Source: Bacilli bacterium
Lineage (GTDB): Bacteria > Bacillota_I > Bacilli_A > RF39 > UBA660
Length of the DNA: 64,000 nt
Assembly (NCBI GenBank): GCA_017428495.1
Contig: JAFRQS010000026.1
Coordinates: forward strand, 8,372 to 72,371
Reading direction: 5' to 3'
Shown piece by piece: positions 1 to 30,820 of this stretch. Under the pieces are notes generated by a model that ran no database searches, was not told the origin of the DNA, and was given only the letters and a program-made list of their open reading frames with translations. The position numbers were made by a program, and so were the translations under genes. Numbering within the stretch: position 1 is the first letter of the stretch; each line of letters begins with the position of its first letter.

Positions 1-987
1 CATGATTTGCAAGTTCTGATATCATATTGATTCTTAGTGGTCCAACTTCAGTTGCAACTAATGGATTTACATATCTTGTTTTTGCATTAATATTTACACA
101 ATATCTGCCATCAACATATTCATTGCTGTGATAAACTGTATTAGCATTTTGAAATCTTCTAAAACTATCAGATAGATAAGTATCATTACAATTTAAAAAT
201 TTATTAATTATTTCTTCTTCTGATAATGTATATAAATCATCTATTGTTAAATACCCAGCATTACTCATAGATTTACACATATCCGCTAAGAATTGCATAA
301 CAGTCCTATCTTTATCACTTACCCATTCGGGCCAAAGTCTTGATATAGTATGAATATATTCTTCACACACTTCTTTATCCTTAAATGCCAGTTCATCTAT
401 ACCATCTTCATTTTTTACAATTGTTATATTATTGTACATCTTTTTTATTTGTTCTAATTCCCATACTCTAAAAAATGTTAGTCCACTAGCAAAAGTATAT
501 TCAAATCTATCGGCTGATAATCTTGGAGTATCATTATCAGCAATTGGATATATATGATAGTCATCTACTTCTTCTAATTTTATTCCATCTCTATTTAATA
601 AAGCCATTATTTCTTTTGAATTTTTAATAATATCAGTTGTTCTTTCTTCAGTAGATTCTTGTGTTTCTGAATCGCCATTCATAAAATCTATACAATGTTT
701 AAATACTGGAGTTGCTATATCATGAAATAGTCCAGCAATAGTTTGCTTCTTATCATGAGTAAAATTCCATATTATTAATGCTACTCCAACACTATGATCT
801 AAATTAGAATACCAATATCTTAGATTAAAGCATTTAGAGTAATCTGTTCCACAACTCATACTTATTTTTCCAATTCTTTCCATTTCTGGAGTATCTATAT
901 ATTCTAATAACCATTCTGGAAATGTTGGCGATAAGATACTAAAATAATCTCTTACTTCATCATTTAAATTATCTATGTACTTTTCCA
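1..987 (-). CDS. HD-domain phosphohydrolase (5' part; continues beyond window start)
   Basis: Reverse translation from ATG at 987 (MEKYIDNLNDEVRDYF...). Contains H..G.....H.........AGLFHDIATP, the HD metal-binding motif. No stop before position 1. Confidence 0.6.
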
Positions 988-1014
988 TATAACCACCTGT
1001 TTAATTATTATATC

Positions 1015-1116
1015 AAAAAAGACTAGTTTTACCTAGTCTTTTTACTACTTATTGTTGATTGCAGCTTGTGCAGCAGTTTACACCAGCAGTCAATTATTAT
1101 TTTAACTAAAATGACT
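1015..1116. repeat. att-like unit A: conserved-stem hairpin (1015-1043) + ppdK 3'-end mimic ttgattgcagcttgtgcagcag (1055-1076) + ACTAAAATGACT (1105-1116)
   Basis: 19-nt identity to ppdK 3' end at 12985-13003. Hairpin stem aaaagactag/ctagtcttt is shared with the units at 1880, 2754, 3388 and 12910. Confidence 0.8.
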
Positions 1117-1118
1117 CT

Positions 1119-1850
1119 TTAATCGAATTCTAATCTCCCTTTTCCTTTATAAAGATATTGTGGAATATTTAGTTTTAATTTTAATTCTTTAACATATCGT
1201 GGTTTAATATTTTCCTCTAATATTCTGCTAATAGCATCTGTTTGATGTTCTGGAACAGGTTCATCTAATGGCATTCCTAATACACACTTATCTTCACTTG
1301 CAGATGGAATAATGCCATGTGCTAACAATTCATTTTCTTTTGTCCAATCATCTTCCAAATCATAAACAGGTAATAATAGTTCTATGCCAAATTCATTTAG
1401 TAATTGCCTATATCCTTCAATAACTTTTGGCTGCTCAATAGAAAATAATTGACTTTTTCTTGCACCTTCGGCAATAAAATGAACATCATTTAATAAACAA
1501 TATCTTATTGCTTCATGATACATAGCACTTCTGCAATTTAGGCATCTGACTTGCGAAATAGTAGTATCACCATATCTACTGCAAAGCTCACTAAATGACA
1601 TATTTGCTATTACTCTTTCATTGTCTCTAAATAGAGGAACCGTTGTAAGTTTTCCTACATATTCAACTATATCTTTACCATATCCATTTTCAAATTTTAT
1701 TGCTCTTTCAACTTCTAAACCAGTTGATATAGAGCAGCCATTATCAAAATGAACTAATAAAACTTTATAACCTTGTGATACCAATCTTGCCATAGATAAT
1801 ATTGAATCTAATCCGCCAGAATACATTAGAAGAACTTTTTTCCTTTCCAT
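1119..1850 (-). CDS. PP-loop ATPase, QueC-like (7-cyano-7-deazaguanine synthase family); cassette cargo
   Basis: N-terminal LLMYSGGLDS PP-loop motif. About 240 aa with a C-terminal Cys pair (CLNCRS). Stop is 2 bp from ACTAAAATGACT. Confidence 0.6.
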   Translation of the reverse strand: MERKKVLLMYSGGLDSILSMARLVSQGYKVLLVHFDNGCSISTGLEVERAIKFENGYGKDIVEYVGKLTTVPLFRDNERVIANMSFSELCSRYGDTTISQVRCLNCRSAMYHEAIRYCLLNDVHFIAEGARKSQLFSIEQPKVIEGYRQLLNEFGIELLLPVYDLEDDWTKENELLAHGIIPSASEDKCVLGMPLDEPVPEHQTDAISRILEENIKPRYVKELKLKLNIPQYLYKGKGRLEFD

Positions 1851-1879
1851 AACCCCACTCCTTGAATAGATTATAACAT

Positions 1880-2116
1880 AAAAAAAGACTAAAATATAAT
1901 AATTCTAGTCTTTCTAAATATAAATATCCATAAATATAGGTTCATTTAATCTATATTTTACATTATTACCACATATTCTTTTAACATCATCAATTGTAAT
2001 AATTATTCTCACTAAGAATATGCTTTCATACTGTTTCATTTTCCTGATTTTTCGTGAAGATGAGCTTGTGCAATTTCCTACTTTGGCAGTCAATTTATAA
2101 ACTCACTAAAATGACT
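1880..2116. repeat. att-like unit B (degenerate): hairpin 1880-1914, core gatgagcttgtgcaatttcc 2058-2077, ACTAAAATGACT 2105-2116
   Basis: Same stem (aaaagacta...ctagtcttt) and agcttgtgca core as the ppdK end. The right-end ACTAAAATGACT is 9 bp from the stop of the next gene. Confidence 0.65.
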
Positions 2117-2126
2117 TATATTTTTA

Positions 2127-2468
2127 TTATTTCTTATTTTTGGGCTTTAATATTTTAGAAAATGCATTTGAACATTTTTCTTTTATTCTAGCTGTTTTTG
2201 GACCAAATCTTTTAGATACGATTGCAACTGACATTACAAATCTAGTATATATTTCTTCAATTTGTTTACATTTGTCCATATAATATTGTTCTGTATCTAT
2301 ATTATTGGCAATTGATTCTTTAACTTCTTGTTCCATTAAAGATAATGGATATTCAAAATATTGAACAATTGTAGAATATAAATGATCAGCTTTACATTTT
2401 TCTATATCTTCTTTTAACAAATTTAATCCTATATAGTATTGTTCTTTAAAAGTTATTTTCTTTTCCAT
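2127..2468 (-). CDS. hypothetical protein (cassette cargo)
   Basis: 113-aa ORF with no recognisable motif. Bracketed by att-like units B and C. Confidence 0.45.
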   Translation of the reverse strand: MEKKITFKEQYYIGLNLLKEDIEKCKADHLYSTIVQYFEYPLSLMEQEVKESIANNIDTEQYYMDKCKQIEEIYTRFVMSVAIVSKRFGPKTARIKEKCSNAFSKILKPKNKK

Positions 2469-2753
2469 ATTTCCTCCTTTTTTATTAATTTCATAGTTTT
2501 AACGCTCTGGAATTATTTGGTTATTTATCGAGCTAACCAATATCACCAAATTGCATTCATAATTTGCTATATATTTCTCATCTGATGACATGACAAAAAC
2601 CTCTATTGCAGTCACATATTATACATCAACTTTTGAAATATATCAAATACTAAATAGAACAACTCTAAATAAGCCAATTATAATCTAATTCCTGTTGGTT
2701 TTCTAAAATACATATATTATCATCCTTTCTTTTTTATATATTTTTTTCCAACA

Positions 2754-2877
2754 AAAAAAGACTATTTCTAGCCTTTCTTGTATTTTATATTTTCATGCTT
2801 TTGCGTTCTAATTATTTCTCGCTTTAATTGCAGCTTGTCACCATGTGAGGTTCGGGCCGATTTAGACTAAAATAACT
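2754..2877. repeat. att-like unit C: hairpin 2754-2778 + ttaattgcagcttgt 2824-2838 + ACTAAAATaACT 2866-2877
   Basis: About 85 bp collinear with 12910-12996 (ccaacaaaaaaagactatttctag...ttaattgcagcttgt), then diverges after cttgt. Confidence 0.8.
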
Positions 2878-2902
2878 TTTTGTCATATGTACAACAATTA
2901 AT

Positions 2903-3361
2903 TTAAATCTTTTTTCTCGCATTATCAATTTGTAATCTGCATTCATTTTCTAATATTCCAATTTCAATATTTAGTTCTGTTTTTGATTTATCTTTAATAT
3001 CAAATATAGTCACATTAGGGTTCATAGTTTCTTCACTTGGAGCACCATATATATAATTTTGTATTTTTGCTTTGATGCATGCAGACATACACATACTACA
3101 ACTCCATGCATTTGACATTATACAATAATCAGATAAATCCATTGTATGAAGTTTCTTGCATGCTTTTGAGATTAAATTAATTTCTGCATGTAAAATAGGA
3201 TTCATCATTGATTTAACAGTATTGTGTGCCTTTTCTATTATATTTCCATTTTTATCAATTAGTATTGCACCAAATGGTGAATTTCCTTCTTTGATTGCTT
3301 CATCTACTTCTTGCATCACTAATCTCATTAATTCTTCTTTTTTCTCTATAGTTAGATTCAT
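2903..3361 (-). CDS. CDA-fold (cytidine/guanine deaminase-like) zinc deaminase; cassette cargo
   Basis: HAEINLI ... CSMCMSAC zinc-binding signature of the cytidine/dCMP deaminase superfamily. About 150 aa, comparable to Bacillus GuaD. Confidence 0.65.
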   Translation of the reverse strand: MNLTIEKKEELMRLVMQEVDEAIKEGNSPFGAILIDKNGNIIEKAHNTVKSMMNPILHAEINLISKACKKLHTMDLSDYCIMSNAWSCSMCMSACIKAKIQNYIYGAPSEETMNPNVTIFDIKDKSKTELNIEIGILENECRLQIDNARKKI

Positions 3362-3387
3362 TCTATCACCTATATAAATTATACCAT

Positions 3388-3527
3388 AAAAAAGACTAGA
3401 TTAGTCATCTAGTCTTAATTACACTTTTTACTTATTTGCCCCAGACTTGATTGCAGCTTGTCAAACCAGATAATTAACTTATCCAATATGGACGCTTAAA
3501 TGTATGATTTTTAAGACTAAAATGACT
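3388..3527. repeat. att-like unit D: hairpin 3388-3416 + ttgattgcagcttgt 3447-3461 + ACTAAAATGACT 3516-3527
   Basis: Same three-part architecture as units A and C. ACTAAAATGACT is 13 bp from the stop of the downstream gene. Confidence 0.8.
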
Positions 3528-3540
3528 TAATTTAATTTTT

Positions 3541-4221
3541 CTATTTAATATTTATTAGATTTTTTACTATTTCTATAAATTGATTCCATCCTATTACTAT
3601 TGTTATAATCACTGAAAGAAAAGTTAAAATACTGATAATACCACTACATAATTTGAATAATACACTATCTTTTACTTTAGATAAACTTTTAGAAGATATT
3701 AATCCCACACTAAATAATATATCAAGAGGGCTTCCTAATATTGCTTTAATACCGCTTGTTAAGTCATATATAGGATTAAATAATCTTCTTATTTCATTTT
3801 TTCTATACTCATCTATTATTCCCATCTTTCTTAAAAAACAATTATGACACCATGTTATTTGATCTCCTTCATATTCAATCAACCCTTTTGCTTTTAAAGA
3901 TAAGACTTCGTTCATGAAATTAATTACTACTTCATAATTTGGATAATGACCTCTACTATCTCTGTAAAGCATTATTCCCGAATCACCTAATATTATTTGT
4001 ATTTTATCACTATTTGACATAAGCCATTCATATTCTTTTGCATTATATTTATCTTTATTCATCAAATCTGAAATAAATTTGCTAAACTTTTCTCTATACT
4101 CATAGATAAAGTTATAATTATCAGACCACTTTCTTATATTTAAAACATTAGTAATAATACCAATTATAATTAGAAAAATTACTGTTAGAATAAAATATAT
4201 CATGGTATGCCTCCTTAACAA
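3541..4221 (-). CDS. membrane protein (N- and C-terminal TM helices), unknown function
   Basis: Hydrophobic segments at residues about 7-28 and about 195-220. Lies immediately downstream of the serine recombinase, co-directional. Confidence 0.45.
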   Translation of the reverse strand: MLRRHTMIYFILTVIFLIIIGIITNVLNIRKWSDNYNFIYEYREKFSKFISDLMNKDKYNAKEYEWLMSNSDKIQIILGDSGIMLYRDSRGHYPNYEVVINFMNEVLSLKAKGLIEYEGDQITWCHNCFLRKMGIIDEYRKNEIRRLFNPIYDLTSGIKAILGSPLDILFSVGLISSKSLSKVKDSVLFKLCSGIISILTFLSVIITIVIGWNQFIEIVKNLINIK

Positions 4222-4250
4222 TATATTATACCATTTTATTCTAAAATAGC

Positions 4251-5876
4251 TTAATCTAATTTGTGTTCTACGATAAAATAATCTTGTTTTTTTCCTTTCA
4301 CTTCTAAATTAATTGGTTCCTTTAAAAATACTAATTTCCATTCGAACCAATCTTTATGTACTGTTATTTTTTCTACTACCTCCTCTATTAATAAATCATT
4401 AATTCCATTGTAATTAAAATCTAATAATCTTCTAACACTTTGTTTAGCTTTTTCAATTTTAACTTCAGGTGGATCTAATCTTTTTAATTCTTTTTCTAAA
4501 TCTTCTATTTCTAATTTATATAATTCTATTTTATCAGATAGTTTCTTTTGAAAAGATTCATAATCATTTGAATTAACTTTCTTATCTAAATATAAATTCA
4601 ATAATCTATCTAATTTAGTAGATTCTTCTTTTATTAATTTATTATATCTTTTTATTTCACTATTTAATTCATCAGCTTCATGTGTATCTATTTTTATACC
4701 ATTAAGTAGTATTAGTTCTAATTCTATTCTGTTGTGATCATCTTCAACAAGATTTCTAAATATAAACTCAGCCATTTTTTCAAGTTTCCATTCCTGTACT
4801 TCTTTAACTTCACAATATTTATAACCATATTCATACTTCCCACCCTTGGGATGAGTTTTTCTATTATAGCATGCATAGGCATATGTTTTACCTTTGTTAG
4901 TTGTGTGATCTTTTCTTCTATTAAATGTTGAACCACATTCACAAATCATTTTCTTGCTCCAAACATATTTAGGTACTCCAATTGCTGTCCTATCACCTGA
5001 TGGTGATGGTTTAGAGTGTCTATCTAATATAGCTTGTACTTTATCAAAATCTTCTTTTGAAATAATAGGTTCATGTGTACCTTCAACAACTATTTGTTCT
5101 ATCTCTCCTCTATTCTTTTTAGCTTTTTGCTCAAGATAATCTGGAATATATTGTTTGTTATAAACTATTGTTCCAGCATAGAATTGATTTCTTAATACAC
5201 GAGTTATATAAGCCGCATTCCATCTATTTAGTCCAGTTGATGTCTTATAACCCTTCCTTTCTAAGTCTTTTGCTATAGTAGTAGTTCCTACACCATTTAG
5301 ATATTTTTTAAATATATATCGAACTATATCTGCTTGGTCTTGATTAACTATCATAGTATTCTTATTAATTTTGTCATATCCAAGAATATTTCCTGAACCC
5401 ATGAAAATTCCATTCATGAATGCTATTCTTAAACCTGCTTTTACTCTTTGAGAAGTTTTCTTACTCTCATTTTGAGCTAGTGTTGCCATTATAGTGAGCT
5501 TTAATTCTCCATCATCATCCTTAAATGTCCATATATTATCTTCAGTAAAATATACTTCAACACCAATCTTTTTTAGTTTTCTTGTTTCTTGTAATGTATC
5601 AACTGTATTTCTAGCAAATCTTGATACTTCACGAGTAATAATTAAATCAAATTTACCTTCATGGGCATCTTTCATCATTCTTATAAAATTCTTTCTTTTC
5701 TTAATAGAAGTTCCTGTAATACCTTCATCTATATATCTATCATATAGAATCCAATTAGGATGTTTATCTAAAATATCATCATAGTACTGAACTTGATTAT
5801 CTAATGCTGACAATTGAGCTTCATGTTCAGTAGATACACGAGCATATATAGCAACCTTCCTATTCATTTTCATCAC
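4251..5876 (-). CDS. large serine recombinase (resolvase/invertase N-domain + recombinase domain + zinc ribbon + coiled coil)
   Basis: VAIYARVSTEHEAQLSALDNQ with the catalytic Ser region, RFARN and a Cys cluster (CECGS...CYNRK...YCE). 541 aa, typical of phage/ICE-type serine integrases. Confidence 0.85.
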   Translation of the reverse strand: MMKMNRKVAIYARVSTEHEAQLSALDNQVQYYDDILDKHPNWILYDRYIDEGITGTSIKKRKNFIRMMKDAHEGKFDLIITREVSRFARNTVDTLQETRKLKKIGVEVYFTEDNIWTFKDDDGELKLTIMATLAQNESKKTSQRVKAGLRIAFMNGIFMGSGNILGYDKINKNTMIVNQDQADIVRYIFKKYLNGVGTTTIAKDLERKGYKTSTGLNRWNAAYITRVLRNQFYAGTIVYNKQYIPDYLEQKAKKNRGEIEQIVVEGTHEPIISKEDFDKVQAILDRHSKPSPSGDRTAIGVPKYVWSKKMICECGSTFNRRKDHTTNKGKTYAYACYNRKTHPKGGKYEYGYKYCEVKEVQEWKLEKMAEFIFRNLVEDDHNRIELELILLNGIKIDTHEADELNSEIKRYNKLIKEESTKLDRLLNLYLDKKVNSNDYESFQKKLSDKIELYKLEIEDLEKELKRLDPPEVKIEKAKQSVRRLLDFNYNGINDLLIEEVVEKITVHKDWFEWKLVFLKEPINLEVKGKKQDYFIVEHKLD

Positions 5877-5980
5877 CTCTACTAAAAATTAACATTTTTA
5901 TAAGAATTTGTTTACTGTGCGATTTTTACATAAGAAAAAGAAGTATTTCTACTTCTTTCATCACACATTTGACAATTATT

Positions 5981-6292
5981 CTATTCTTCAGCAGCTATAT
6001 CCTTATACTTATCGATTACCTCTTGCATCTCACTGTTGATTTCTTGCACCAATACAGGCTTATTTTGAACAAACGTTTTTAATTGCCCATATATATTACT
6101 ATAAATAAGTTTTTCAACGTCACTTGCAATTTCAACGCCTTCAATATATTCATCTAATACTATCTCTTCCTCATCATATATTTTTTGTAAAATTTCATAT
6201 ATATCTTCTTTAGCAATATCAGATATAGGTTTAAAATCCACTCCATCTTTGCTAAAATAGCACTTTTTATTTTCAATTTTTAAAAGTTTCAT
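5981..6292 (-). CDS. small acidic protein, partner of the PHP-ATPase (translationally coupled)
   Basis: Start MKLLKIEN at 6292 with RBS AAAGGAGAAATATAT upstream. Overlaps the upstream gene's stop (6273) by 20 bp. Confidence 0.5.
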   Translation of the reverse strand: MKLLKIENKKCYFSKDGVDFKPISDIAKEDIYEILQKIYDEEEIVLDEYIEGVEIASDVEKLIYSNIYGQLKTFVQNKPVLVQEINSEMQEVIDKYKDIAAEE

Positions 6293-8306
6293 ATATATTT
6301 CTCCTTTCATCATATGCTTCACTACCTGCTTCCATAACTTCCATTATAGTGTCATAACTCATTATTGAATCATTATTAACTGTTGATAATGTTTTACTAC
6401 CAAATTCTCCAGTATAAACCTTAAACACATTATCTTCGTTAGCTGTATAAATCAATTTATTAGGTTTCATTAACATTCCCAATGAATTATTATGTGTAGA
6501 TATAAATACAGTAGTTTTATTAGATAATTCTTTTATTATCTCTATTATATAATCCTTTATAAATGGATTATCAAATGATGCTTCTGGTTCATCTAATAAT
6601 AATATATCATAACTTTCAGAGCCTTTAATCTCCCGTAACAAATTGTATTCAGCTCTTTCTCCTCCAGATAATTCATTACCATTCTCATTTATTACCTTAA
6701 CTTTAAATGATAATATTGCTTTGTAAACCGTGCTTCTGTCGATTCCAGCATTTACTAATTCTTTAATAAATTTAAATGGATTGGTATTATAGTTAGAATT
6801 AAAATATGAACTAATTCCTGTTCTTGTCGAAAGTTCGTGTTTTACTTCATCTGCATTATTAAATTTATCTTTCTCAACAATAAGTTTAAAACGATACACA
6901 TCTAATTCACAAATATTTTTCTTTGTTTTTAGTCTTGATACCAATTCATTATATTTATTAACTAAAATTAATTCTTTACTAGCTTTGTAAAGATTAACCT
7001 CACTTATATTTATCATTGAGGATTTTGTTGTTAATTTATCCTTAATTATAGTTACTATATTATCAGTGCTTTGCTTTAACTTATATTCTAAATACTCTTT
7101 TCTTCTCCTAGCAATTAAATCATTTATTAAACTTACAATTTGCTTTTTATCTAAATATTTTTCAATCAAATCTTTGTTATGATCACTATCAAGAATTACA
7201 GTTAACGCATTTACTATTTTTTTAGTATCATAATTATCTAAAAAATCAAACTTAATTTCATTGAATAGTTTAGTTTTTGAATATGAATCTTGTAAAGATT
7301 GATTTGTAGCAAACTCTTTTAGACTTGATAAATAATTATCTATTTTATTTAATTCTTCATTATTAATATCTAAAATTGTATCAGTTAGTTTTCTAAGTGG
7401 TTCTAAATAATTAGAAATGATTCTTTGTTGTTCATCTTTAACAAGTTCCTTAAACTTGCTTTCTTCACTTTTACCAGTCAAAGAGAATTGAGGAATATAT
7501 TTGATATTCTCACTTTTATTATCCTTTGAACTATAAATGTGTTCCAAATTATAAGTTTTTCCAGATGATCTCTTTCCTATAATTACATTTAATTTTGTTG
7601 AAGCAGTTGTACCATCTGGTAAATATGAAAATTCATCTGCTTTTTTATTTTCAGAGATAAAAACCTTATTTTTATCTGATAAAGCTTGTTTTAATACGCC
7701 AAACTCTGTTGAATTTATGTCTACGAAAGTGCTTTTTGATGGAAAGCTATATATTCCTTCTTCATTTTTATATGAATCCTCCATTCGAATATCGCTAAAG
7801 AAAACAGGTGAATAAAAAGTATCCTCTTTTTTTGTACTTTCAAATTTTTTTGCACTTTTTACTTCACCAACATTTATAATATTACCAAATTTTTCAATTG
7901 TGGTACTTTTCATTGATGGCTCTTTCTTTATGTGGGGGATTAAAATATAATCTCTGTAGTTTGGAAATATTCTAATAAATTCTTCATAACTAATTGAATC
8001 ATTAGCATTGTGTATGGAATTATTTAATAAAACGCATGAATTATTCAATTCTTCAACTCTATCTATTGAGGCAATAGCTAACATATGAGATGATTCAATA
8101 TCAATTTCTACCCCTGGTAATACAACACAGTTTAATTTGTTAACGATTGTTTCAAATTGATCTTTATCAAAATGATTATGATTAGTTATTGATATTATAT
8201 CTAATTTATTGATGTCAACATACTTTTCTAATGCATCGATTGAAAAATCAAATGATCTTTCAAAATTACTTGGTGATGTGTGTATATGTAAATCTATTTT
8301 TTTCAA
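6273..8306 (-). CDS. PHP-domain phosphoesterase fused to SMC/ABC-type ATPase (Walker A, coiled coil, LSGG signature, Walker B, H-loop)
   Basis: N-terminal IDLHIHTSPS...ITNHNHFD (PHP). GKRSSGKT (Walker A). About 300 aa helical region. LSGGERAEYNLL signature. ILLLDEPEASFD (Walker B). ISTHN (H-loop). Likely TTG start at 8306 preceded by an in-frame stop and a GGAG RBS. Confidence 0.7.
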   Translation of the reverse strand: MKKIDLHIHTSPSNFERSFDFSIDALEKYVDINKLDIISITNHNHFDKDQFETIVNKLNCVVLPGVEIDIESSHMLAIASIDRVEELNNSCVLLNNSIHNANDSISYEEFIRIFPNYRDYILIPHIKKEPSMKSTTIEKFGNIINVGEVKSAKKFESTKKEDTFYSPVFFSDIRMEDSYKNEEGIYSFPSKSTFVDINSTEFGVLKQALSDKNKVFISENKKADEFSYLPDGTTASTKLNVIIGKRSSGKTYNLEHIYSSKDNKSENIKYIPQFSLTGKSEESKFKELVKDEQQRIISNYLEPLRKLTDTILDINNEELNKIDNYLSSLKEFATNQSLQDSYSKTKLFNEIKFDFLDNYDTKKIVNALTVILDSDHNKDLIEKYLDKKQIVSLINDLIARRRKEYLEYKLKQSTDNIVTIIKDKLTTKSSMINISEVNLYKASKELILVNKYNELVSRLKTKKNICELDVYRFKLIVEKDKFNNADEVKHELSTRTGISSYFNSNYNTNPFKFIKELVNAGIDRSTVYKAILSFKVKVINENGNELSGGERAEYNLLREIKGSESYDILLLDEPEASFDNPFIKDYIIEIIKELSNKTTVFISTHNNSLGMLMKPNKLIYTANEDNVFKVYTGEFGSKTLSTVNNDSIMSYDTIMEVMEAGSEAYDERRNIYETFKN

Positions 8307-8361
8307 CTATCTCATCTCCACTTCAACAATTATTATAACATAAAACAGGAAGCTTAACTTC

Positions 8362-8565
8362 CTATTTTATTCCCCTTGGATTCCAATCCATACCTATATT
8401 TTCAAGTAATTCTATTTTTTCTTTTGATAATTTATTCTTTTTATAAGTACCTCTTTGAGTTCCTATCCATCTACCTAATTGTATTTTATCTATAGTTGTA
8501 TATCGAAACGGAATTAATAAATTTCCTTTTTCTTTATAATATTGTTCAGCAAGTTTATAAATATA
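8362..8565 (-). pseudogene. remnant of a helicase-associated (HA) domain gene
   Basis: 57-codon frame with no start: ...KLAEQYYKEKGNLLIPFRYTTIDKIQLGRWIGTQRGTYKKNKLSKEKIELLENIGMDWNPRGIK*. Matches the G.W...QR..YK.GKLS.E....L...G..W HA-domain pattern. Stop codon lies just upstream in frame. Confidence 0.5.
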
Positions 8566-8625
8566 TTATTTCAATGGTTACTCTCCATAAAATTTCTTCT
8601 CACTTGTTGTTATTATATCATGAAA

Positions 8626-8652
8626 AAAGCAGATTTTTTCATCTGCTTTAGA
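8626..8652. terminator. hairpin aaaaaagcagattttttcatctgcttt (second copy at 10562-10589)
   Basis: Perfect inverted repeat (gcagat/atctgc) flanked by A/T runs. A near-identical copy lies 1.9 kb away. Confidence 0.55.
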
Positions 8653-8677
8653 ATGCACAATATCTTAATCTTCCGAT

Positions 8678-9607
8678 CTAATCTATTTTTAATTTAAATG
8701 AATACCAAGCAGTTCCACGATCACATATTGTATCAATTAACACTACATATTCCCCTTTTAAATTAGGAACTGTAAAATTATTTTTTTCATAAGTAATAGG
8801 AATATCTACTTTTTCATATTTTGAATCATAAAAGGTAATTCTAGTTATAGTTAAATCACTAGAGGAATCTAGAGCAATAATATCCTCTTTATTACTTGGC
8901 AAATATTCATCATAATTAATATCTTCTAAAGGAATTGACAAGCCACATGAACTTGCTTTATCTTCTCCTTTAGTATCAGTAATACAATATGAGCCAATTT
9001 GTGTAAGATTTCTATCTTTACCATTAATTACCCACAAATTTCTTGGTGTTGGATTAAATACTTCAACATCCCAAGTAAATAGCCAAAAGCCAAATTTAAT
9101 ATTAATACTATTACTTAATGGCTCATTAGGTGAAATACTTACTTCTTTTTTCATTTTATAACCAAATCCCAAATAAGTATAATTATTTCCATTTTCACGA
9201 ATTGGTATCATAAACAATGGATTTTCATTATGCCTTACACGATTATAATCAGTCCAAAATGTATAAATAAAGAACAATAGCAGGAAAGCAACTACAGATA
9301 TAATTATAATTCTTTTAATTTTTTTAATCCTATTTGTTGAATATTTTATTGTATTATTTAATACTTCATCAGTTTTTTCTTTTAATTCACTTTCTTTTAT
9401 TCTTTCACCACTCAATAATTCATTTAAAGATATATCAAGTATTTCACATAGCGGTTTATAAAAAACTATATCTGGCATTCTTCTACCATTTTCCCAGTTA
9501 CCAATAGCTCGATCTGTTACATTTAATTTATCTGCAAGTTCTTGTTGTGTCATCTTTTTTTCTTTACGAATTTTAGCAATAAATTTTCCAATTTTTTCTT
9601 GATTCAT
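8678..9607 (-). CDS. membrane-tethered XRE-family HTH regulator (HTH - TM - extracytoplasmic domain)
   Basis: N-terminal MTQQELADKLNVTDRAIGNWENGRRMPD (Cro/C1 HTH). TM at about 100-120. Confidence 0.7.
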   Translation of the reverse strand: MNQEKIGKFIAKIRKEKKMTQQELADKLNVTDRAIGNWENGRRMPDIVFYKPLCEILDISLNELLSGERIKESELKEKTDEVLNNTIKYSTNRIKKIKRIIIISVVAFLLLFFIYTFWTDYNRVRHNENPLFMIPIRENGNNYTYLGFGYKMKKEVSISPNEPLSNSINIKFGFWLFTWDVEVFNPTPRNLWVINGKDRNLTQIGSYCITDTKGEDKASSCGLSIPLEDINYDEYLPSNKEDIIALDSSSDLTITRITFYDSKYEKVDIPITYEKNNFTVPNLKGEYVVLIDTICDRGTAWYSFKLKID

Positions 9608-9746
9608 AGTTTTTGCTCCTTTCGTATTTAATTATAGATTGCATTTCTAAAAAAGTATCCAAACAATCCGTAGGGTTTCATATATCTATATTTTATCACA
9701 AAAAAAGAGAATTCTTTAATTCTCCTAATAACCATTATTTGAATAG

Positions 9747-10469
9747 TTATTTTTCATATAACAATACTGATTTATTTATATATTCATCTAGTTGCTTTTT
9801 TGATATGTTTTTAATATTATTTATATTTGAATCAATATAATATATTTTTATTTTCTTAGTCTCTTTGTCGTTGATAGTTATGGGATAGTATCTATAACTA
9901 TTTCCGTTATAAATAGATTTCTTAACTATTTCATTATAAGAACATTTAGAATTCAAAAATATAATCTCATAATCATTATCATCCATTATAGAGTATTGAT
10001 TAATGTTGCCACTATAGACGGTACATAAATCTTTTGTGGTAAAAAATAATTGATTATCTCTTTCTTCAACATACATCCTATTTTCATCATAGTTTAAAAT
10101 TACTTTATGATTTCCAACAAGTATTAATGTTAAAACAACAATAACTATTATTGATACTAAAACAATAATTGTTCTTCTTATTCGTGTAATTTTAGTATTT
10201 ACATTTGATATAACGGAAAAAACATTTTCTTCTAACTTTTCTTGGTATGAATTTTTTTCTACCTTTTCACCACTTAACAAATCATTTATTGTAATATTTA
10301 ATTCATTACACAACGGTTTAAAAAAAGATACATCAGGAAAATTCTTACCATTTTCCCAATTTGATATAGCTCTATCTGTTACACCTAATTTTTCAGCTAA
10401 TTCACTTTGAGTAATTTTATTATCTTTACGACATTTAGCTATAAACTTTCCTATTTTAATTTGATCCAT
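9747..10469 (-). CDS. membrane-tethered XRE-family HTH regulator, paralog of 8678..9607
   Basis: ITQSELAEKLGVTDRAISNWENGKNFPD HTH followed by a TM segment. N-terminal region nearly identical to its neighbour. Confidence 0.7.
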   Translation of the reverse strand: MDQIKIGKFIAKCRKDNKITQSELAEKLGVTDRAISNWENGKNFPDVSFFKPLCNELNITINDLLSGEKVEKNSYQEKLEENVFSVISNVNTKITRIRRTIIVLVSIIVIVVLTLILVGNHKVILNYDENRMYVEERDNQLFFTTKDLCTVYSGNINQYSIMDDNDYEIIFLNSKCSYNEIVKKSIYNGNSYRYYPITINDKETKKIKIYYIDSNINNIKNISKKQLDEYINKSVLLYEK

Positions 10470-10613
10470 TTTATTTCTCCTTTCTAGATTTAGAATACTA
10501 TGGCTTATAAAAAAATAACACGAAGTGTTGCTTGAGTTTTTAATATTATTATTTTATCACAAAAAAAGCAGATTTTTTTCATCTGCTTGATTATTAATTT
10601 TATAAGAATTCTA

Positions 10614-10934
10614 CTATGAAACCCATGACCACAGTCTTATTCCATAGAATAAATAAAATTCTTTCCCCATAACCTTAACCATTTTATTATCGTCTGAAGA
10701 ATCTTCTGACATATAATACTTTACTTTTATTTTATAGCCAAGGCTAAAATATTCAAAATCTATTTCTTCACCAGGTTCTAAACATGATATACAATATTTT
10801 GTCCTATCCAAAACTATTAATGGTTTACTACTATCATTAATTTTTAATCTTATACTTTCTTCTGTAATAAATAAAGCAAATATTCCTATAATTACTATTA
10901 ATATTATTCTTATTATTTTAAATACTTTCTTCAT
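10614..10934 (-). CDS. small membrane-anchored protein
   Basis: N-terminal hydrophobic anchor, 106 aa. Confidence 0.35.
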   Translation of the reverse strand: MKKVFKIIRIILIVIIGIFALFITEESIRLKINDSSKPLIVLDRTKYCISCLEPGEEIDFEYFSLGYKIKVKYYMSEDSSDDNKMVKVMGKEFYLFYGIRLWSWVS

Positions 10935-10945
10935 CTAAACACCTT

Positions 10946-12121
10946 TTATTTCTTTATTAATACATCAGGATAGTCATCAGCAATTTTATCAGCTGATATT
11001 AAGTTGGTTTCTAATGCAGACTTAAGAGTCATAACCTTATTATCAATCATAAACTTAATCATTACTTTATCACTCTTAATGCAACTTAAATAGTATTTAT
11101 GTCCATTATTTTCATAGATTTGTTCTAATGCTGTAGCACAAGTTTCGTCTGGATCAGAATAGTCTAAAATGCTATAGAAAATATAATCTGTTTCATTCTC
11201 AATTATTTTTCTCAAATCTGTTCCATTTGATATTGAATAATAACAACTATTTATACTTTCTGGTAGAATTCTCTTTCCATCACCCCATACTTGTATCGTT
11301 TCAATTAGTTTTTTATCATCATACATTTTAAACTCAAATCCATGTCCATCACTTAAACAATATTCACCATATCTGTTTGCACTTGATATTGCATTTAATA
11401 TTTCCTTTATTTTATTCGAATCTTTTATTACACCTAATTCTTTATCACCAGCATTAATTATTATTTTATTAGTTTTATCTATTTTTTTAATAATATTGGA
11501 TGGTATAGATTTACTTTGTTTTTCACTATTATTAGTTACACATTTATTAGTTAAGTCTTCCATATCAATATCGTTATTTTCAGTATGAACATAAATAATA
11601 GGAATTACTGGGCTTGAGAATGTTTGGTATGTAGTAAACCTTTTACTAAAGTATTCATCAAAAACATTCATTACTTCTGATTCATAAGTTCCATTTTTAG
11701 GGAAAATAATAAAATACATATTGTCTTTATGTTTACTAGCATATTTACCTTTAAATATATCAATTTTATCTTTATTAACATTTTTTATTTCAGATAATTG
11801 TATTTCAATTAAATCATCTTGTTCTGTTACTAAATATCCACCTAATTCATTTTCTAAACAAGATACAAGTTTATTCATGTCTTGTTCTGCTTCAACATAG
11901 GTATTTATTTCTCCGGCAACATGAAATCCTAGTATTTTAAGTTCCCATCCGTCTTCATATCCAGTTGATGAGGTCTGACTTATTCTGTGTATTTTAGTAT
12001 ATTTATATAAAACAGCTTTATATTCTGTAGATCCTCCATCCCATAATCTGTCTTTAATTGGAATAAGCATTAAGATAAAAATTGCAATTATAACAATAAT
12101 AATTATTTTTTTCTTTTTCAT
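10946..12121 (-). CDS. membrane-anchored extracytoplasmic protein, unknown function
   Basis: N-terminal KKKK plus hydrophobic anchor. 391 aa. Confidence 0.4.
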   Translation of the reverse strand: MKKKKIIIIVIIAIFILMLIPIKDRLWDGGSTEYKAVLYKYTKIHRISQTSSTGYEDGWELKILGFHVAGEINTYVEAEQDMNKLVSCLENELGGYLVTEQDDLIEIQLSEIKNVNKDKIDIFKGKYASKHKDNMYFIIFPKNGTYESEVMNVFDEYFSKRFTTYQTFSSPVIPIIYVHTENNDIDMEDLTNKCVTNNSEKQSKSIPSNIIKKIDKTNKIIINAGDKELGVIKDSNKIKEILNAISSANRYGEYCLSDGHGFEFKMYDDKKLIETIQVWGDGKRILPESINSCYYSISNGTDLRKIIENETDYIFYSILDYSDPDETCATALEQIYENNGHKYYLSCIKSDKVMIKFMIDNKVMTLKSALETNLISADKIADDYPDVLIKK

Positions 12122-12213
12122 AGTTCCTCCTATATCTTTATTATACTACATAATTATTAAATATTATCATCAACTTAAATCATCGTAATATTACTATTTT
12201 TCGAACAAAGGAA

Positions 12214-12681
12214 TTAGCTATATAAATTATAGTTTAATTTCCATTCAATATATTCTTGATCTGATATTTCACCTTTCATTCTTCTTTCTCTCATTTCTCC
12301 CCATTCTTCTAATCCTCTTATAATATCTTCATTGTAATATGTCTTTTTCATTGCATCTTTGTCGAAAATATATTCACTATAAGGGCTTAGTTCTTCTTCC
12401 CACATATGATAATAAATAACTTCATTAGGGTCTACAAAATTATATCTTCTTATTGCATAGTTACTTACATCAAATAATTCTGCTAAATCTTCTAATCTTT
12501 CTGGTTGTGGTTCTCTAGCATTTCTTTCATATTTATCTATGCTATCTGTTGGTTTTTCACCTCCTAACTCTAAAAACTCTGCTACATTTGGCTTAGACAT
12601 ATATCTTAGCTCCCTTACAAATTTTAGTCTTGCGCCTTGACTAAGATTCTCCAATTCAGGTTTAAAAAAATAATTTTTCAT
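12214..12681 (-). CDS. XRE-like HTH domain protein
   Basis: ARLKFVRELRYMSKPNVAEFLELGG ... LEDLAELFDVSNYAI resembles an HTH_3 domain. Located at the ppdK-proximal end of the island. Confidence 0.4.
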   Translation of the reverse strand: MKNYFFKPELENLSQGARLKFVRELRYMSKPNVAEFLELGGEKPTDSIDKYERNAREPQPERLEDLAELFDVSNYAIRRYNFVDPNEVIYYHMWEEELSPYSEYIFDKDAMKKTYYNEDIIRGLEEWGEMRERRMKGEISDQEYIEWKLNYNLYS

Positions 12682-12721
12682 AAATATACCTCCTATCTTA
12701 TTTTTTTATTCCATTAAAAAA

Positions 12722-12760
12722 GCTAGTACTTAATACTAGCCAACTCCTTTTTTATTCTTT
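12722..12760. terminator. bidirectional terminator hairpin gctagtacttaatactagc
   Basis: Perfect 7-bp stem flanked by A-run and T-run. Confidence 0.5.
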
Positions 12761-12909
12761 TTAACTTTTGCTCTCCATATTTGGACTACAAGAAATGCAA
12801 CCCGAGTTTTATTGTCACTATACTATGCCATTTAGAACCACCTCTTTTCCAATTTTTAATAATTTTCACTTAAATATTTATGATTACCCCCAAACCCTTT
12901 TAATCCCAA

Positions 12910-12996
12910 CAAAAAAAGACTATTTCTAGTCTTTTCATTTTATTACTTTGGTACGTTTAAACGTCCTATTTTTGATTCGCCTTAATTGCAGCTTGT
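12910..12996. repeat. ppdK-proximal att-like unit: terminator hairpin 12910-12935 + ttaattgcagcttgt 12982-12996 (current ppdK 3' end)
   Basis: Template for units A-D. The core overlaps the last 9 codons of ppdK. Confidence 0.8.
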
Positions 12997-15596: not shown

Positions 15597-15672
15597 ATAA
15601 TCTTCCTTTCACACAACATTTATTGTAACAAAAAAAAAATAGTAGAGCAATAAATCTTTACTATTCTTTACA

Positions 15673-30755: not shown

Positions 30756-30820
30756 ATCACACCTCTAATTAATAATATGAATATGTTTAAAAATAATGAA
30801 AAAAAGACTAAAAAGTCTTT

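Follow-up and report, generated by a model that had tools for sequence, protein, structure and literature searches.

A tandem cassette array at the 3' end of ppdK in uncultured gut Bacilli, apparently an integron-like system built on a large serine recombinase

Results

Repeat units downstream of ppdK

The window, that is, the whole 64-kb stretch of DNA analysed here, contains ppdK on the minus strand and, past its 3' end, a series of repeat units of the form arm, ACAAGCYGCAAT and tail. Three sequence matches define the units:

1055-1069, 2824-2838, 3447-3461 and 12982-12996, all + strand: core 15-mer TTRATTGCAGCTTGT, exact matches
1015, 1881, 2754, 3388 and 12912: hairpin stem AAAAAAGACTA, one per unit
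1104, 2104, 2865 and 3515: box GACTAAAATGACT, 0-1 mismatch

With up to 2 mismatches allowed, the 15-mer had 4 matches against 0.55 expected, and 4 or more were reached in 0 of 100 shuffles; no further copy was found anywhere in the 64 kb. A previous sequence-only reading had described five units that all share the 15-mer. All five exist, far beyond chance, and the 15-mer is exact in four of them, but the degenerate unit at 1880-2069 retains just ACAAGCT (2063-2069 on the gene strand). Since its left arm is 92% identical to arms of sites in other genomes, this unit is also a real site. The shared-stem hairpins reported before were recovered in every unit. The position of the box 2-25 bp from the stop of the adjoining minus-strand genes was also confirmed (2, 10, 25 and 13 bp for the boxes at 1104, 2104, 2865 and 3515, respectively). 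Elsewhere in the window, the box was matched at 2 mismatches only. Terminator stems of the AGACT type are also present outside the array, for example at 30800-30818.

The array extends past the left window edge, where the same scaffold has three more units (L011 13617, 14195 and 15444; loci are numbered with L), and it comprises at least 8 sites rather than five. A GNAT cassette, an HTH+KilA-N cassette and a terminal site lie beyond the window, followed by TetR/MMPL genes (L011 12293-15444). The cassette order of the window was found again in the independent assemblies L012, L016, L017 and L021, thus it is not an assembly accident. The sites and cassettes are as follows:

12966..15596, minus: ppdK, pyruvate, phosphate dikinase, 876 aa (ORF and translation)
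12898..13020, minus: site 0, attB-like/attL junction adjoining ppdK; B arm 12997-13020 (ppdK coding), core ACAAGCTGCAAT 12985-12996, E1-borne tail IKANQK-stop ending at 12966, terminator hairpin 12912-12935
3374..3527, minus: site D, right end of E1; box AGTCATTTTAGTC 3515-3527, long left arm 3462-3514, core 3450-3461, tail QAAIKSGANK-stop to 3428, terminator 3392-3416, TGGTATAAT 3378-3386
2839..3461, minus: cassette 2, 623 bp, with tail, terminator, promoter, gene, box and short left arm
2903-3361: gene of cassette 2, cytidine/dCMP deaminase fold, 152 aa (Pfam dCMP_cyt_deam_1, 1.1e-19)
2741..2877, minus: site C; box AGTTATTTTAGTC 2865-2877, ending 26 nt from the core, short left arm 2839-2864, core 2827-2838, tail QAAIKARNN-stop to 2808, terminator about 2755-2778
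2070..2838, minus: cassette 3, 769 bp; one 113-aa protein of unknown function, 2127-2468
1880..2116, minus: site B, right side degenerate; box AGTCATTTTAGTG 2104-2116, left arm 2070-2103, ACAAGCT 2063-2069, divergent in-frame tail QAHLHEKSGK-stop 2036-2068, terminator 1882-1911
1914-2039: remnant of a CBS-domain gene at site B, 41 aa
1070..2069, minus: cassette 4, 1000 bp; decayed CBS gene, then a PP-loop ATPase-like gene
1119-1850: PP-loop ATPase-like gene, 243 aa (Pfam ThiI 5.9e-05, QueC 5.9e-04)
1007..1116, minus: site A; box AGTCATTTTAGTT 1104-1116, left arm 1070-1103 of the ATTGACTGC... family, core 1058-1069, tail QAAINNK-stop to 1045, terminator 1016-1043, TATAAT 1007-1012
1..1069, minus: cassette 5, cut by the window edge; putative HD-domain gene, 1-987 here, 369 aa in full

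The identical ppdK gene in L001 has the Pfam domains PPDK_N, PEP-utilizers and PEP-utilizers_C. The core copy at 12982-12996 lies inside ppdK, and the last nine codons (QAAIKANQK-stop) consist of the recombination core and the tail brought by the first inserted element. The copy at 12910-12996, formerly regarded as the only one with the ppdK end, does encode these codons, but every unit has an in-frame ppdK-like tail with stop (see the list). Site C and the ppdK unit form a 98-nt repeat (D2) with 72% identity. The spacer of about 140 bp in unit B does not derive from ppdK but is the remnant of the CBS-domain gene; in L020 a longer CBS-domain ORF stands upstream of the same PP-loop gene. For the 113-aa protein of cassette 3, no match was obtained in Pfam or PADLOC.

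Element E1 and its large serine recombinase

Between site 0 and site D lies the autonomous element E1, bounded by homology breaks in other loci and by the arm/core junction:

3462..12996, minus: E1, 9.5 kb
12214-12681, 9747-10469 and 8678-9607: three HTH genes
10946-12121 and 10614-10934: two genes of unknown function
6273-8306 and 5981-6322: candidate defence genes PDC-M49A/B
4251..5876, minus: large serine recombinase (LSR), 541 aa, proposed catalyst, with the catalytic motif YARVSTEHEAQ near the N terminus
3541-4221: membrane protein, 226 aa

E1 has the tail and terminator on the ppdK side and the box and long left arm on the other; no hidden ACAAGC site with a recognisable arm was found in its interior. 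The LSR, which the sequence-only reading had missed, matched Pfam Resolvase and Recombinase (both 1.1e-27) and, weakly, Zn_ribbon_recom (0.0052), with 3g13, SPbeta YokA/SprA and the A118 integrase as relatives in PDB. Its best NCBIfam model is CcrB, at 154.7 bits versus a cut-off of 900. The E1-type tail is joined to at least 4 different left arms in other loci (L131, L132, L053, L099), and in L131, L132 and L053 the homology to the window begins exactly at 12996. This tail stays with the E1 left end behind those arms, in agreement with the earlier proposal that arrivals bring their own gene end and terminator. Arm D is identical behind LSRs of 97-98% identity in L027, L129, L131 and L132.

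Cassettes in related species

The same architecture was found in about 90 species-level MAGs of gut Bacilli, in which 258 core sites and 82 non-redundant cassettes were counted; the whole data set consists of MAGs and metagenome contigs, where repeated modules can mis-assemble. The non-redundant cassettes have a median length of 1203 bp and mostly one ORF in the array orientation (112 of 116 ORFs co-oriented). The 117 cassette proteins represent 95 families, and GNAT, NUDIX, toxin and defence genes are among the cargo; cassettes without an ORF measure 112 bp in L069 and 287 bp in L100. The first ATG lies at a median of 105 nt past the core, and the coding fraction is 0.77. With each cassette come a terminator and a substitute ppdK tail that is in frame, and usually also an extended -10 promoter belonging to the cassette: a stop occurs 6-27 codons past the Gln in 253 of the 258 sites, and TAnAAT is found within 45 nt past 98 of 145 canonical terminators (background 17%), at a fixed 2-5 nt in 75 of the 98.

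Cassettes are common to distant species, at different array positions. The HTH+KilA-N cassette is 7th in the window array and first after ppdK in L045 (91.4% identity), and a 92.2% identical copy of the deaminase cassette is second after ppdK in L101; the ppdK proteins of these two hosts are just 65-67% identical to that of the window. A 94.7% identical copy of the putative HD cassette stands directly behind a recombinase arm in L027, and the HD-domain gene, previously taken for the chromosomal flank, is itself a cassette. Rare tail types move with their cargo, QAAINNK-stop with the HD cassette and the QAAIKSGANK-stop type with the deaminase cassette.

LSR clades and left-arm families

The ppdK specificity of this clade emerged from 80 metagenome loci built around LSR relatives of 49-98% identity. 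ppdK lies 2-8 kb upstream on the same strand in 22 of the 80 loci, with the same core downstream of the LSR. Among the 22 loci having the full 10 kb upstream, ppdK was present in 13; its absence from the other 9 counts against the specificity. In all 80 loci every core is on the LSR strand, and where ppdK is present nearly all cores lie at its 3' end or beyond it; L152 has one match within ppdK. In about 25 loci the left arm and core follow directly on the LSR stop; others have one extra gene in between.

Each LSR clade has its own left-arm family. Within each LSR cluster (at least 85% identity) the left arm is the same and the right-hand tails differ, while the arms differ between clusters. 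The window-type cluster has one arm in 5 of 5 members with a downstream core; three other clusters have at least 3 such members. The resident LSR, the sole one in the window, belongs to arm type D and the four to six small cassettes have other arm types, so that either this LSR cross-reacts or LSRs now absent inserted them. Decay was also observed: in L131 the LSR is truncated (residues 351-539 only) and adjoins a mutated core, ACAATCCGCAAT.

The strand-exchange interval

Comparison of the sites places the strand exchange in the hexamer ACAAGC. For core positions +7, +10 and +13, the right-hand tail is a better predictor than the left arm; divergence starts right after ACAAGC in L002 and L006, which represent another strain of this species, and in unit B, and the E1 tail stays with the E1 left end.

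Discussion

The earlier reading of serial site-specific insertion at the ppdK 3' end is supported by the LSR in the array, by its relatives downstream of ppdK in 22 loci and by the same cassettes at other array positions in other species. In our interpretation, the ppdK 3' end probably serves as the fixed insertion target of a family of integrative elements that depend on a ppdK-specific LSR clade. Apparently, this is an integron-like gene-capture system built on an LSR rather than the integron enzyme, and our literature search found no description of such a system. Read along the ppdK strand, the mobile unit consists of the right core part, a replacement ppdK tail with stop, a terminator, usually a TGnTATAAT promoter, cargo, often the AGTCATTTTAGTC box, a family-specific left arm and the left core part. 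The LSR, as the likely catalyst, would exchange strands within ACAAGC (the Gln-Ala codons of ppdK) between the element site (left arm, ACAAGC, tail) and ppdK (coding arm, ACAAGC, tail). The arriving tail and terminator would mimic the resident ones, so that the ppdK-proximal product would resemble the target again and ppdK would stay intact and terminated, while the distal product would resemble the element site. The next arrival would then insert at the same place and shift earlier ones outward, giving a one-way array in which the newest insertion is presumably the most proximal.

Autonomous members such as E1 carry the LSR just upstream of their own left arm. Most units are one- or two-gene cassettes without recombinase, whose arms belong to families cognate to particular LSR clades; such LSRs may mobilise these cassettes in trans or, as blocks, in cis. 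Recombination of the ppdK site with any downstream site could excise the intervening block as a circle, provided that the reaction is reversible even where no directionality factor acts. The attachment sites of LSRs usually span about 50 bp, attP and attB having little identity, and LSRs usually catalyse integration only, excision requiring a directionality factor. The long stretch shared between the present sites is unlike usual LSR sites, and the long-arm box and hairpin fall outside a typical LSR half-site; both count against the proposed mechanism.

The small one- and two-gene units look more like compact mobilisable cassettes than whole elements. A rather unlikely alternative is that only LSR-bearing elements integrate and the small units are CIME-like deletion remnants, the array being a fossil record. 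Decay is directly visible in the truncated LSR and mutated core of L131 and in the CBS-gene remnant of unit B, so some small units may be wreckage; all small-cassette arm families that could be matched are cognate to some LSR clade, and decay followed by accretion is a documented route to CIME tandems (PMC5704250). However, single-gene cassettes without LSR are 91-95% identical across species whose ppdK proteins are about 66% identical, with different array positions and neighbours. Random deletion also predicts gene fragments and irregular spacing, whereas the cassettes are compact in coding fraction, ATG position and promoter spacing, and the ORFs of the 117 proteins in 95 families are intact.

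It is improbable that homologous recombination across the shared module of about 100 bp (core, tail, terminator, promoter) moved the small units with no dedicated enzyme. A module of this length would suffice for RecA-dependent exchange, the HTH+KilA-N cassettes have different tails in L011 and L045 although their cargo is 91% identical, and the start of BLAST homology at core base 1 is in part a forced outcome, as every module begins at that base. But the variable bases at core +7 and +10 already go with the tail, and one left arm joins many tails, which locates the exchange to the left border of the module instead of across it. Moreover, rare tail types move with cargo (HD, deaminase, E1), the break is again at ACAAGC where the tails are unrelated (unit B, L006), and the conserved left-arm families with their LSR-clade match would be left without explanation.

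Even less probable is an integron- or Xer-like tyrosine recombinase as the driver, although the array architecture is integron-like, a XerC/XerD-type gene lies directly upstream of ppdK and co-oriented in at least 11 loci, and a 320-aa tyrosine recombinase lies about 5 kb past the distal end of the array in the window genome. These proteins score as housekeeping XerC (341.7 bits in L078, cut-off 335) and fall far short of the integron-integrase model, at 138 bits with a cut-off of 265. The 64-kb window has no XerC-like gene, inspection by eye showed neither a dif-like 11-6-11 layout nor an attC signature at the sites, and co-variation with the arms was seen for the LSR but not for the tyrosine recombinase.

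That the units are dispersed terminator or REP-like repeats, unlinked to ppdK or recombination, is hardly credible despite the AGACT-type stems elsewhere in the window, since the core 15-mer is confined to the array, the repeats are only ppdK-distal and on one strand, every core of the 80 LSR loci is on the LSR strand, and the in-frame tail is kept in nearly all of the 258 sites.

The proposed insertion by an LSR invites comparison with known systems, of which SCC composite islands, CIME accretion and integrons are the closest. The phage LSRs (A118/LI, SPbeta SprA, Bxb1, phiC31) likewise have a resolvase catalytic domain, a recombinase domain and a zinc-ribbon region, a recombinase gene adjoining the attP arm and exchange within a very short interval. 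In contrast, the left product here would regenerate a usable target for serial insertion, the attP-like and attB-like sites have the whole right half in common, and neither phage genes nor a directionality factor were identified; a search of IMG/VR found no relatives. Tycheposons of Prochlorococcus resemble the array in their tandem small cargo elements and remnants at a conserved gene end with partial target copies kept. Unlike the ppdK array, they target tRNA genes with mostly tyrosine-type recombinases and, to our knowledge, are without a single-gene cassette format having promoter and terminator.

CIME accretion, as for ICESt1/ICESt3 at the fda 3' end of Streptococcus thermophilus, also yields integrase-less units retaining both att sites and composite blocks that are possibly excised (PMC5704250), but it involves tyrosine integrases, conjugative or mobilisable elements of many kb and usually two or three units. 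For IMEs with serine recombinases, insertion inside genes and very short flanking repeats are described (PMC5704250), whereas the target proposed for the present LSR is the 3' end of a gene, whose tail is rebuilt, and an array can comprise 8 or more units of about 1 kb each.

SCC/SCCmec (background: PMC7029136, PMC12648241) uses Ccr LSRs at the 3' end of the housekeeping gene rlmH/orfX and restores the gene end, each element is flanked by direct repeats containing the target gene end, and tandem composite islands include recombinase-less (pseudo-SCC) units. The window LSR has CcrB as its best NCBIfam match, but it is far outside the Ccr family, and the target is ppdK instead of rlmH. There is a single recombinase gene versus the ccrAB pair, and most units measure 0.6-2 kb and hold one gene and a promoter of their own, versus tens of kb for SCC elements. 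Dozens of left-arm families matched to LSR clades and hosts that are uncultured gut Bacilli (Erysipelotrichaceae-like and Acholeplasmatales-like MAGs) further separate the two systems.

With sedentary chromosomal integrons (IntI, attI, attC), the array shares its one-way, compact, co-oriented and mostly single-ORF form at one fixed site, a very large and varied cargo repertoire, cassettes without an ORF, and variable site families around a small invariant core. It differs in having a serine and not a tyrosine recombinase, with no intI beside the array, and sites lacking the attC R''/L''-L'/R' structure or GTTRRRY. The cassettes have their own promoter and terminator, independent of Pc; every cassette has to restore the end of the housekeeping gene in which the landing site lies, and the recombinase travels within an array member.

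Organization of the array downstream of ppdK

The array lies beyond the 3' end of the pyruvate, phosphate dikinase gene ppdK, and its successive core sites going away from ppdK are named 0, D, C, B and A. The core 15-mer to which the sequence-only reading had pointed, TTRATTGCAGCTTGT (read on the ppdK strand as ACAAGCTGCAATYAA), was present in four exact copies on the plus strand; at up to two mismatches 0.55 matches are expected in the 64-kb window, and no shuffle reached four. The hairpin stem AAAAAAGACTA, said to be conserved, adjoined every copy and was present also at 1881. The box GACTAAAATGACT was likewise found near minus-strand stops with at most one mismatch at 1104, 2104, 2865 and 3515, at a distance of 2-25 bp, and the copy closest to ppdK proved to lie within the gene, where it codes for QAAIKANQK*. 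Since MAFFT gaps scrambled the register of the six raw units, core-anchored stacking was used for the alignment instead.

Features of the array region (window coordinates)
12966-15596, minus strand: ppdK
12982-12996, plus strand: core 15-mer copy within ppdK (site 0)
3447, 2824 and 1055, plus strand: starts of the other exact core 15-mer copies
1880-2069: unit B, with core ACAAGCT at 2063-2069
3515-3527, 2865-2877, 2104-2116 and 1104-1116: AGTCATTTTAGTC box
3462-12996: E1, the 9.5-kb ppdK-proximal element
4251-5876, minus strand: large serine recombinase (LSR), 541 aa
5981-8306, minus strand: full-length PDC-M49 match (PADLOC; M49A 677 aa, E = 4e-188; M49B 113 aa, E = 7e-18)
3541-4221: 226-aa membrane-protein gene
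3462-3514: long left arm, containing the hairpin
Unit layout on the ppdK strand, start: cargo stop codon, AGTCATTTTAGTC box, unit-specific left arm, ACAAGCTGCAAT
Unit layout after ACAAGCTGCAAT: a short run of in-frame codons and a stop, then the terminator AAGACTAG-loop-CTAGTCTTTTTT
Unit layout after the terminator: -10-like TATAAT box and ribosome-binding site, then the following ORF

The TATAAT box is TGn-extended at site D, and a ribosome-binding site is not evident at site C. Unit B is a genuine site, because arms from other genomes match its left arm at 92% identity, but one side is degenerate, with the core reduced to ACAAGCT. After ACAAGCT its right side has the in-frame tail QAHLHEKSGK*, followed by a 41-aa remnant of a CBS-domain gene, of which contig L020 carries a longer version ahead of the same PP-loop gene.

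All five units of the array as first described were confirmed, but their total was too low: the scaffold containing the window (L011, L015) has at least 8 sites and 7 units, with a single LSR among the called genes of the array. The gene first called HD-domain, which had been taken as the chromosomal flank, is one more cassette, and the sites continue past the left edge of the window. Three extra sites were located there, behind the 'HD' gene, a GNAT acetyltransferase and an HTH+KilA-N pair, and TetR and MMPL genes begin only past the third of them. The order of the recombinase-less cassettes 2-5 beyond E1 (deaminase, 113-aa, PP-loop and HD) was found again in independent assemblies from other samples. 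In a second strain of the window species (L002, L006) the first element differs, and the ppdK tail diverges directly after ACAAGC. The ppdK-adjacent element of this strain starts with TfoX_N (competence-regulator-like) and zinc-ribbon genes (L002 13704-13997, L006 4340-4864).

E1 carries the LSR and the PADLOC candidate defence pair PDC-M49A/B. M49A has an ABC-type ATPase signature, and its N-terminal motif is PHP-like by eye only, without Pfam confirmation. Relative to elements with 97-98% identical LSRs (L027, L129, L131, L141), the 226-aa membrane-protein gene, with its own promoter, is an insertion that exactly separates the LSR stop from the box, and its region (3528-4250) has a box-like repeat at either end, GCTATTTTAGAAT at the left and GTCATTTTAGTCT at the right. 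This insertion hints that the box may be a second exchange or fusion point. A 240-nt direct repeat of 71% identity in E1 (9375-9614 and 10237-10476) corresponds to two paralogous HTH-plus-membrane-anchor genes (8678-9607 and 9747-10469). Hidden sites were looked for within E1 and none was found. Scans of 1-16000 for known RNA families (Rfam, E up to 1) and for tRNA/tmRNA were empty: the arms correspond to no known RNA, nor is the target a tRNA. A generic promoter scan gave 31 matches against 27 expected in DNA of 25% GC, and promoters were tested by position instead, as TAnAAT downstream of the terminator.

The recombinase and its cognate arms

The window LSR has a resolvase catalytic domain (Pfam Resolvase, 1.1e-27), a recombinase domain (Recombinase, 1.1e-27) and a weakly matching zinc-ribbon/coiled-coil region (Zn_ribbon_recom, 17.6 bits, under the cut-off), the features by which LSRs are recognized. 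Its PDB matches were the A118 integrase, residues 159-468, and SPbeta YokA, and the motif YARVSTEHEAQ was seen in the translation. As in other LSR elements, the recombinase adjoins an attachment site and a short exchange sequence is shared. No second recombinase of this kind was detected in the 64-kb window. IMG/VR was also scanned with the LSR and contained no relatives, thus giving no evidence for a phage.

Metagenome loci with a relative of the LSR at their centre (49-98% identity) were fetched, 80 in all. The LSR clade is specific for ppdK, which was found 2-8 kb upstream on the same strand in 22 of the 80 loci; among these are 13 of the 22 loci whose upstream sequence spans the full 10 kb. 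A core lies 4-100 nt past the LSR stop in about 25 loci, and one extra gene stands between them in others. The arms co-vary with the LSR clades: when LSRs were clustered at 85% identity, each cluster had its own left arm while the right-hand tails varied, which is what would be expected of a cognate element half-site. The left arms of recombinase-less cassettes fall in families cognate to other LSR clades. The arm of window site C matches that adjoining the LSRs of L201 and L177, and the ATTGACTGC/ATGACTGC arms, found at sites A and B and at the two distal sites beyond the window, are matched by the arm at the upstream, 52%-identical LSR of L162.

Movement of cassettes and the exchange interval

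Cassettes are shared between species. The HD cassette has a 94.7% identical copy in L027, directly behind an LSR arm, and the deaminase cassette has a 92.2% identical copy in L101, second after ppdK. The HTH+KilA-N cassette, seventh in the window array, is first after ppdK in L045 (91.4% identical). With the ppdK protein of the window, those of the hosts in L101 and L045 share only 65-67% identity, so these cassettes (91.4-92.2%) are much younger than the divergence of their hosts.

The exchange interval was mapped from the junctions. The E1-type tail joined to the E1 left end occurs behind the ppdK arm (window, L113), behind a D-type arm (L131, L132) and behind two others (L053, L099), and in L131, L132 and L053 the homology to the window begins exactly at 12996. 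Rare tail types accompany their cargo between loci, and one identical left arm was found joined to many tails. At the variable core positions +7, +10 and +13, the tail is a better predictor than the left arm, and unit B and strain L006 both diverge immediately past ACAAGC; the exchange is therefore placed inside or at the edge of ACAAGC. Around the core, several GCTGC-repeat registers of dyad symmetry fit about equally, by eye.

L131 and L132 were considered as a circular form of E1 and this was ruled out, as they hold two LSR elements in tandem, of which the second has a mutated core and an LSR that is truncated. The decaying member (L131 5582-6261) retains LSR residues 351-539 only, followed by a D-type arm and the mutated core ACAATCCGCAAT.

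Distribution and content of the cassettes

One genome per species was scanned for core plus terminator. Because every locus had to show both in canonical form at one site, the estimated conservation of both is biased. The scan returned 104 stretches, which belong to roughly 90 MAGs (gut Bacilli, 'Tenericutes', Erysipelotrichaceae, Acholeplasmatales), with two or three chance hits besides; the ppdK proteins at these loci are 54-81% identical to that of the window. Up to five sites per array occurred within 8 kb, and since the genome loci are 8-kb blocks, array length and LSR presence per genome are lower bounds. All sequences came from MAG or metagenome assemblies.

Over all fetched loci there were 258 core sites, 60 ending ppdK, 20 directly behind an LSR gene and 178 behind other cargo; at least five of these cannot be counted as att sites, since L029 and L117 are chance hits and three others match coding sequence inside ppdK. 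An in-frame stop 6-27 codons past the Gln is kept at 253 of the 258, with typical tails QAAIKAKKN*, QAAIKAKNNK* and QAAINNK*. The 82 non-redundant cassettes had a median length of 1203 bp and a coding fraction of 0.77, and 112 of their 116 ORFs are co-oriented with ppdK. Their first ATG lies a median of 105 nt past the core and their last stop a median of 80 nt ahead of the next core. Single-ORF cassettes numbered 51 of 83. Two mini-units without an ORF, with cores 112 bp apart (L069 2737-2849) and 287 bp apart (L100 2309-2596), consist solely of arm, core, tail and terminator and recall the ORF-less cassettes of integrons.

The canonical terminator was present at 145 of 244 sites. At 98 of these 145, TAnAAT follows within 45 nt, against a background of 17%; in 75 of the 98 it stands at a fixed 2-5 nt and in 58 it has the TGn extension. 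The cassettes are thus predicted to carry their own promoter. The cargo is diverse (117 proteins in 95 families) and includes GNAT, NUDIX, HAD, deaminase, UDG, metallophosphoesterase, HTH, ToxN/AbiQ and several PADLOC candidate families.

Proposed mechanism and alternative explanations

We infer that the LSR acts on two substrates, an element site composed of left arm, ACAAGC and tail, and ppdK, composed of coding arm, ACAAGC and tail, and recombines one with the other. As the right halves of element and ppdK are equivalent, the proximal product would be target-like and the distal product like an element site. The consequence would be serial insertion without limit at the ppdK-proximal position, with ppdK remaining intact and terminated. 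LSRs typically carry out a one-way attP x attB reaction and require a directionality factor for excision; no such factor was identified here. The shared right half-site suggests that the products would still be substrates, and under the model the ppdK site should be able to recombine with any site downstream and so cut out the block between them, with no need of a directionality factor. Cassettes that lack a recombinase would move in trans or within excised blocks.

Our tentative reading, held at somewhat short of even confidence, is that the array is a functional analogue of the integron built on an LSR. The ppdK 3' end would serve as a permanent capture site at which cassettes are captured, excised and exchanged in trans from species to species, and diverged LSR clades would share the target core while each has its own element arms. 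Because each insertion would regenerate the target, stacking could proceed without limit and without a directionality factor. The ppdK 3' end would then correspond to attI and the clade-matched left arms to attC, and the cassettes would be recombinase-less, promoter-equipped and single-gene.

It is unlikely, though it deserves some weight, that the array is a graveyard of decayed LSR elements. The truncated LSR and mutated core of L131 and the remnant in unit B indicate that arrays are a mix of active, mobilisable and dead units, but a graveyard does not account for compact single-gene units shared between species. Homologous recombination alone is considerably less probable. Cassette sharing in itself would not exclude it, because all modules start at the core, but the exchange was placed at the module's left edge, and this interval pattern disfavours plain homologous recombination across the 100-bp module.

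A tyrosine or Xer-type enzyme as the agent is still harder to sustain. In at least 11 loci (L078 1024-2001, L167 1069-1980, L164 363-1256; L101, L039, L151, L153 and others) ppdK is directly preceded by an XerC/XerD-type gene of the same orientation, but these genes score as housekeeping XerC, for which reason they were rejected as the array integrase, and the 64-kb window contains no tyrosine recombinase. Their proximity is probably housekeeping synteny, and its recurrence is notable. The window genome also encodes a 320-aa tyrosine recombinase, about 5 kb past the array end (L015 19250-20212). That the core is a dispersed REP-like repeat can practically be dismissed, since such repeats are scattered in both orientations, whereas the core is restricted to the array, is missing from the other 51 kb of the window and lies on the LSR strand in every case among the 80 LSR loci.

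Comparison with known systems

The closest known systems are SCC composite islands, CIME accretion and integrons. As in SCC, an LSR is associated with insertions at the 3' end of a housekeeping gene, target-end direct repeats bound the units, and recombinase-less units stand in a composite island. SCC inserts in the rlmH 3' end, whereas the array targets ppdK, and the window LSR scored far from the Ccr families on NCBIfam models (CcrB 154.7 bits, cut-off 900; CcrC 120.5, cut-off 900; CcrA 59.4, cut-off 700). [quoted passage not shown] An ICE/IME origin, as for CIMEs, does not fit, as the recombinase is of the serine type with no tyrosine integrase; relaxase or conjugation domains were absent from the scanned E1 proteins and the 25 commonest cassette Pfam families. 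Serine-recombinase IMEs usually insert within genes and have very short flanking repeats (PMC5704250), which makes an LSR system that uses a 3' end and rebuilds its tail unusual.

The array resembles integrons in its compact, co-oriented, mostly single-gene cassettes at one site and in its cargo. It differs in the enzyme, since no IntI was found and the XerC-like genes near ppdK gave 125-139 bits on the integron-integrase model (cut-off 265). The sites share ACAAGCYGCNAT and a coding tail and show no GTTRRRY boundary, and where attC sites have inverted repeats, a hairpin here is confined to the long-arm class. Integron cassettes are promoterless under Pc, whereas the TAnAAT data predict, from sequence only, that these cassettes bear their own promoters. 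Xer-dependent elements (IMEX, pdif) use a 28-bp dif-like site in which a 6-bp spacer separates the XerC and XerD arms; their TTATGTTAAAT-type arm was not seen in the array sites by eye. No description of ppdK or LSR cassette arrays was found among open-access papers and bioRxiv.

As far as we know, Bacillota and their wall-less relatives are essentially without integrons. If our reading is true, a serine-recombinase cassette array would be an independent invention of the integron strategy, in bacteria that are abundant in the gut of ruminants, rabbits and humans, reaching a like outcome by a different route in which each cassette brings a promoter, a terminator and a spare host-gene end. The cargo includes candidate anti-phage systems (PDC-M49 in E1, and ToxN/AbiQ-type and other PADLOC candidate-family matches elsewhere), and the arrays may act as defence and small-enzyme banks, a role that chromosomal integrons have been suggested to play (bioRxiv 10.1101/2024.07.02.601686). 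For inserting large DNA, LSRs are among the leading tools (PMC10083194), and an apparent natural set of diverged LSRs with one target core and distinct element arms could be an engineering resource; target regeneration, if true, would allow serial stacking at a single landing pad.

Left arms, box and accessory modules

The one thing common to all left arms is a weak consensus (CC.A at -17 to -14, G..GT at -5 to -1), with which the ppdK arm agrees at C -16, A -14, G -5 and G -2. Synonymous positions of ppdK are fixed from -8 to +12, of which +1 to +12 were imposed by the search pattern.

A TTAGTC-type match to the AGTCATTTTAGTC box was found ahead of 78 of 198 non-ppdK sites (background 0.11 per 95 nt), with two preferred distances from box end to core, 26 nt and 50-53 nt. 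The box marks the cargo-side edge of many left arms, outside the normal serine-integrase half-site, and ppdK itself has a loosely similar sequence, CCATTTAGAGT, about as far from the core. Cassettes at L097 4825 and L107 146 have the same cargo 3' end and box (atttataataatgtattaataagtcattttagtct) followed by different core-proximal arms, which suggests that modular exchange may occur at the box.

The long-arm class (50-53 nt) is the class adjoining several LSR clades and has an 8-bp hairpin (window 3462-3514; L031, L043, L057, L080, L095, L138, L145, L151, L164 and others), with pairs such as GAACGA/TCGTTC, GGAGCG/CGCTCC and, with G-T pairs, GGAGTGT/ACATTCC. Compensatory changes altered six of the eight pairs on both sides, and 83% of cells were paired against 30-45% in slid controls, a comparison biased towards the structure, which was drawn from the same sequences. 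G-T pairs occur on the sense strand, a hint that the role may be at the level of RNA or single strands, and the hairpin could serve as a 3'-UTR structure in RNA or as a site for an accessory protein. The terminator stem was rejected as an outer recombinase-binding repeat, the distance from core to AGACTA being broad (14-75 nt, main peak 43-46); it is probably a plain terminator travelling with the tail.

A second post-terminator module was noted at 15 of 240 sites (e.g. L006 4260-4290, L011 15510-15545, L077, L104, L112, L131 8912), located either at terminal sites or where larger elements begin. It consists of the inverted repeat GTTCGGAAAATAGTAATATTCCGA, which may be an operator, and a TGGTATAAT promoter about 30 nt on. 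A repeated GGAAGATTAAGATAT motif separates the genes of the TfoX_N/zinc-ribbon element and also heads one left-arm family (L098, L104).
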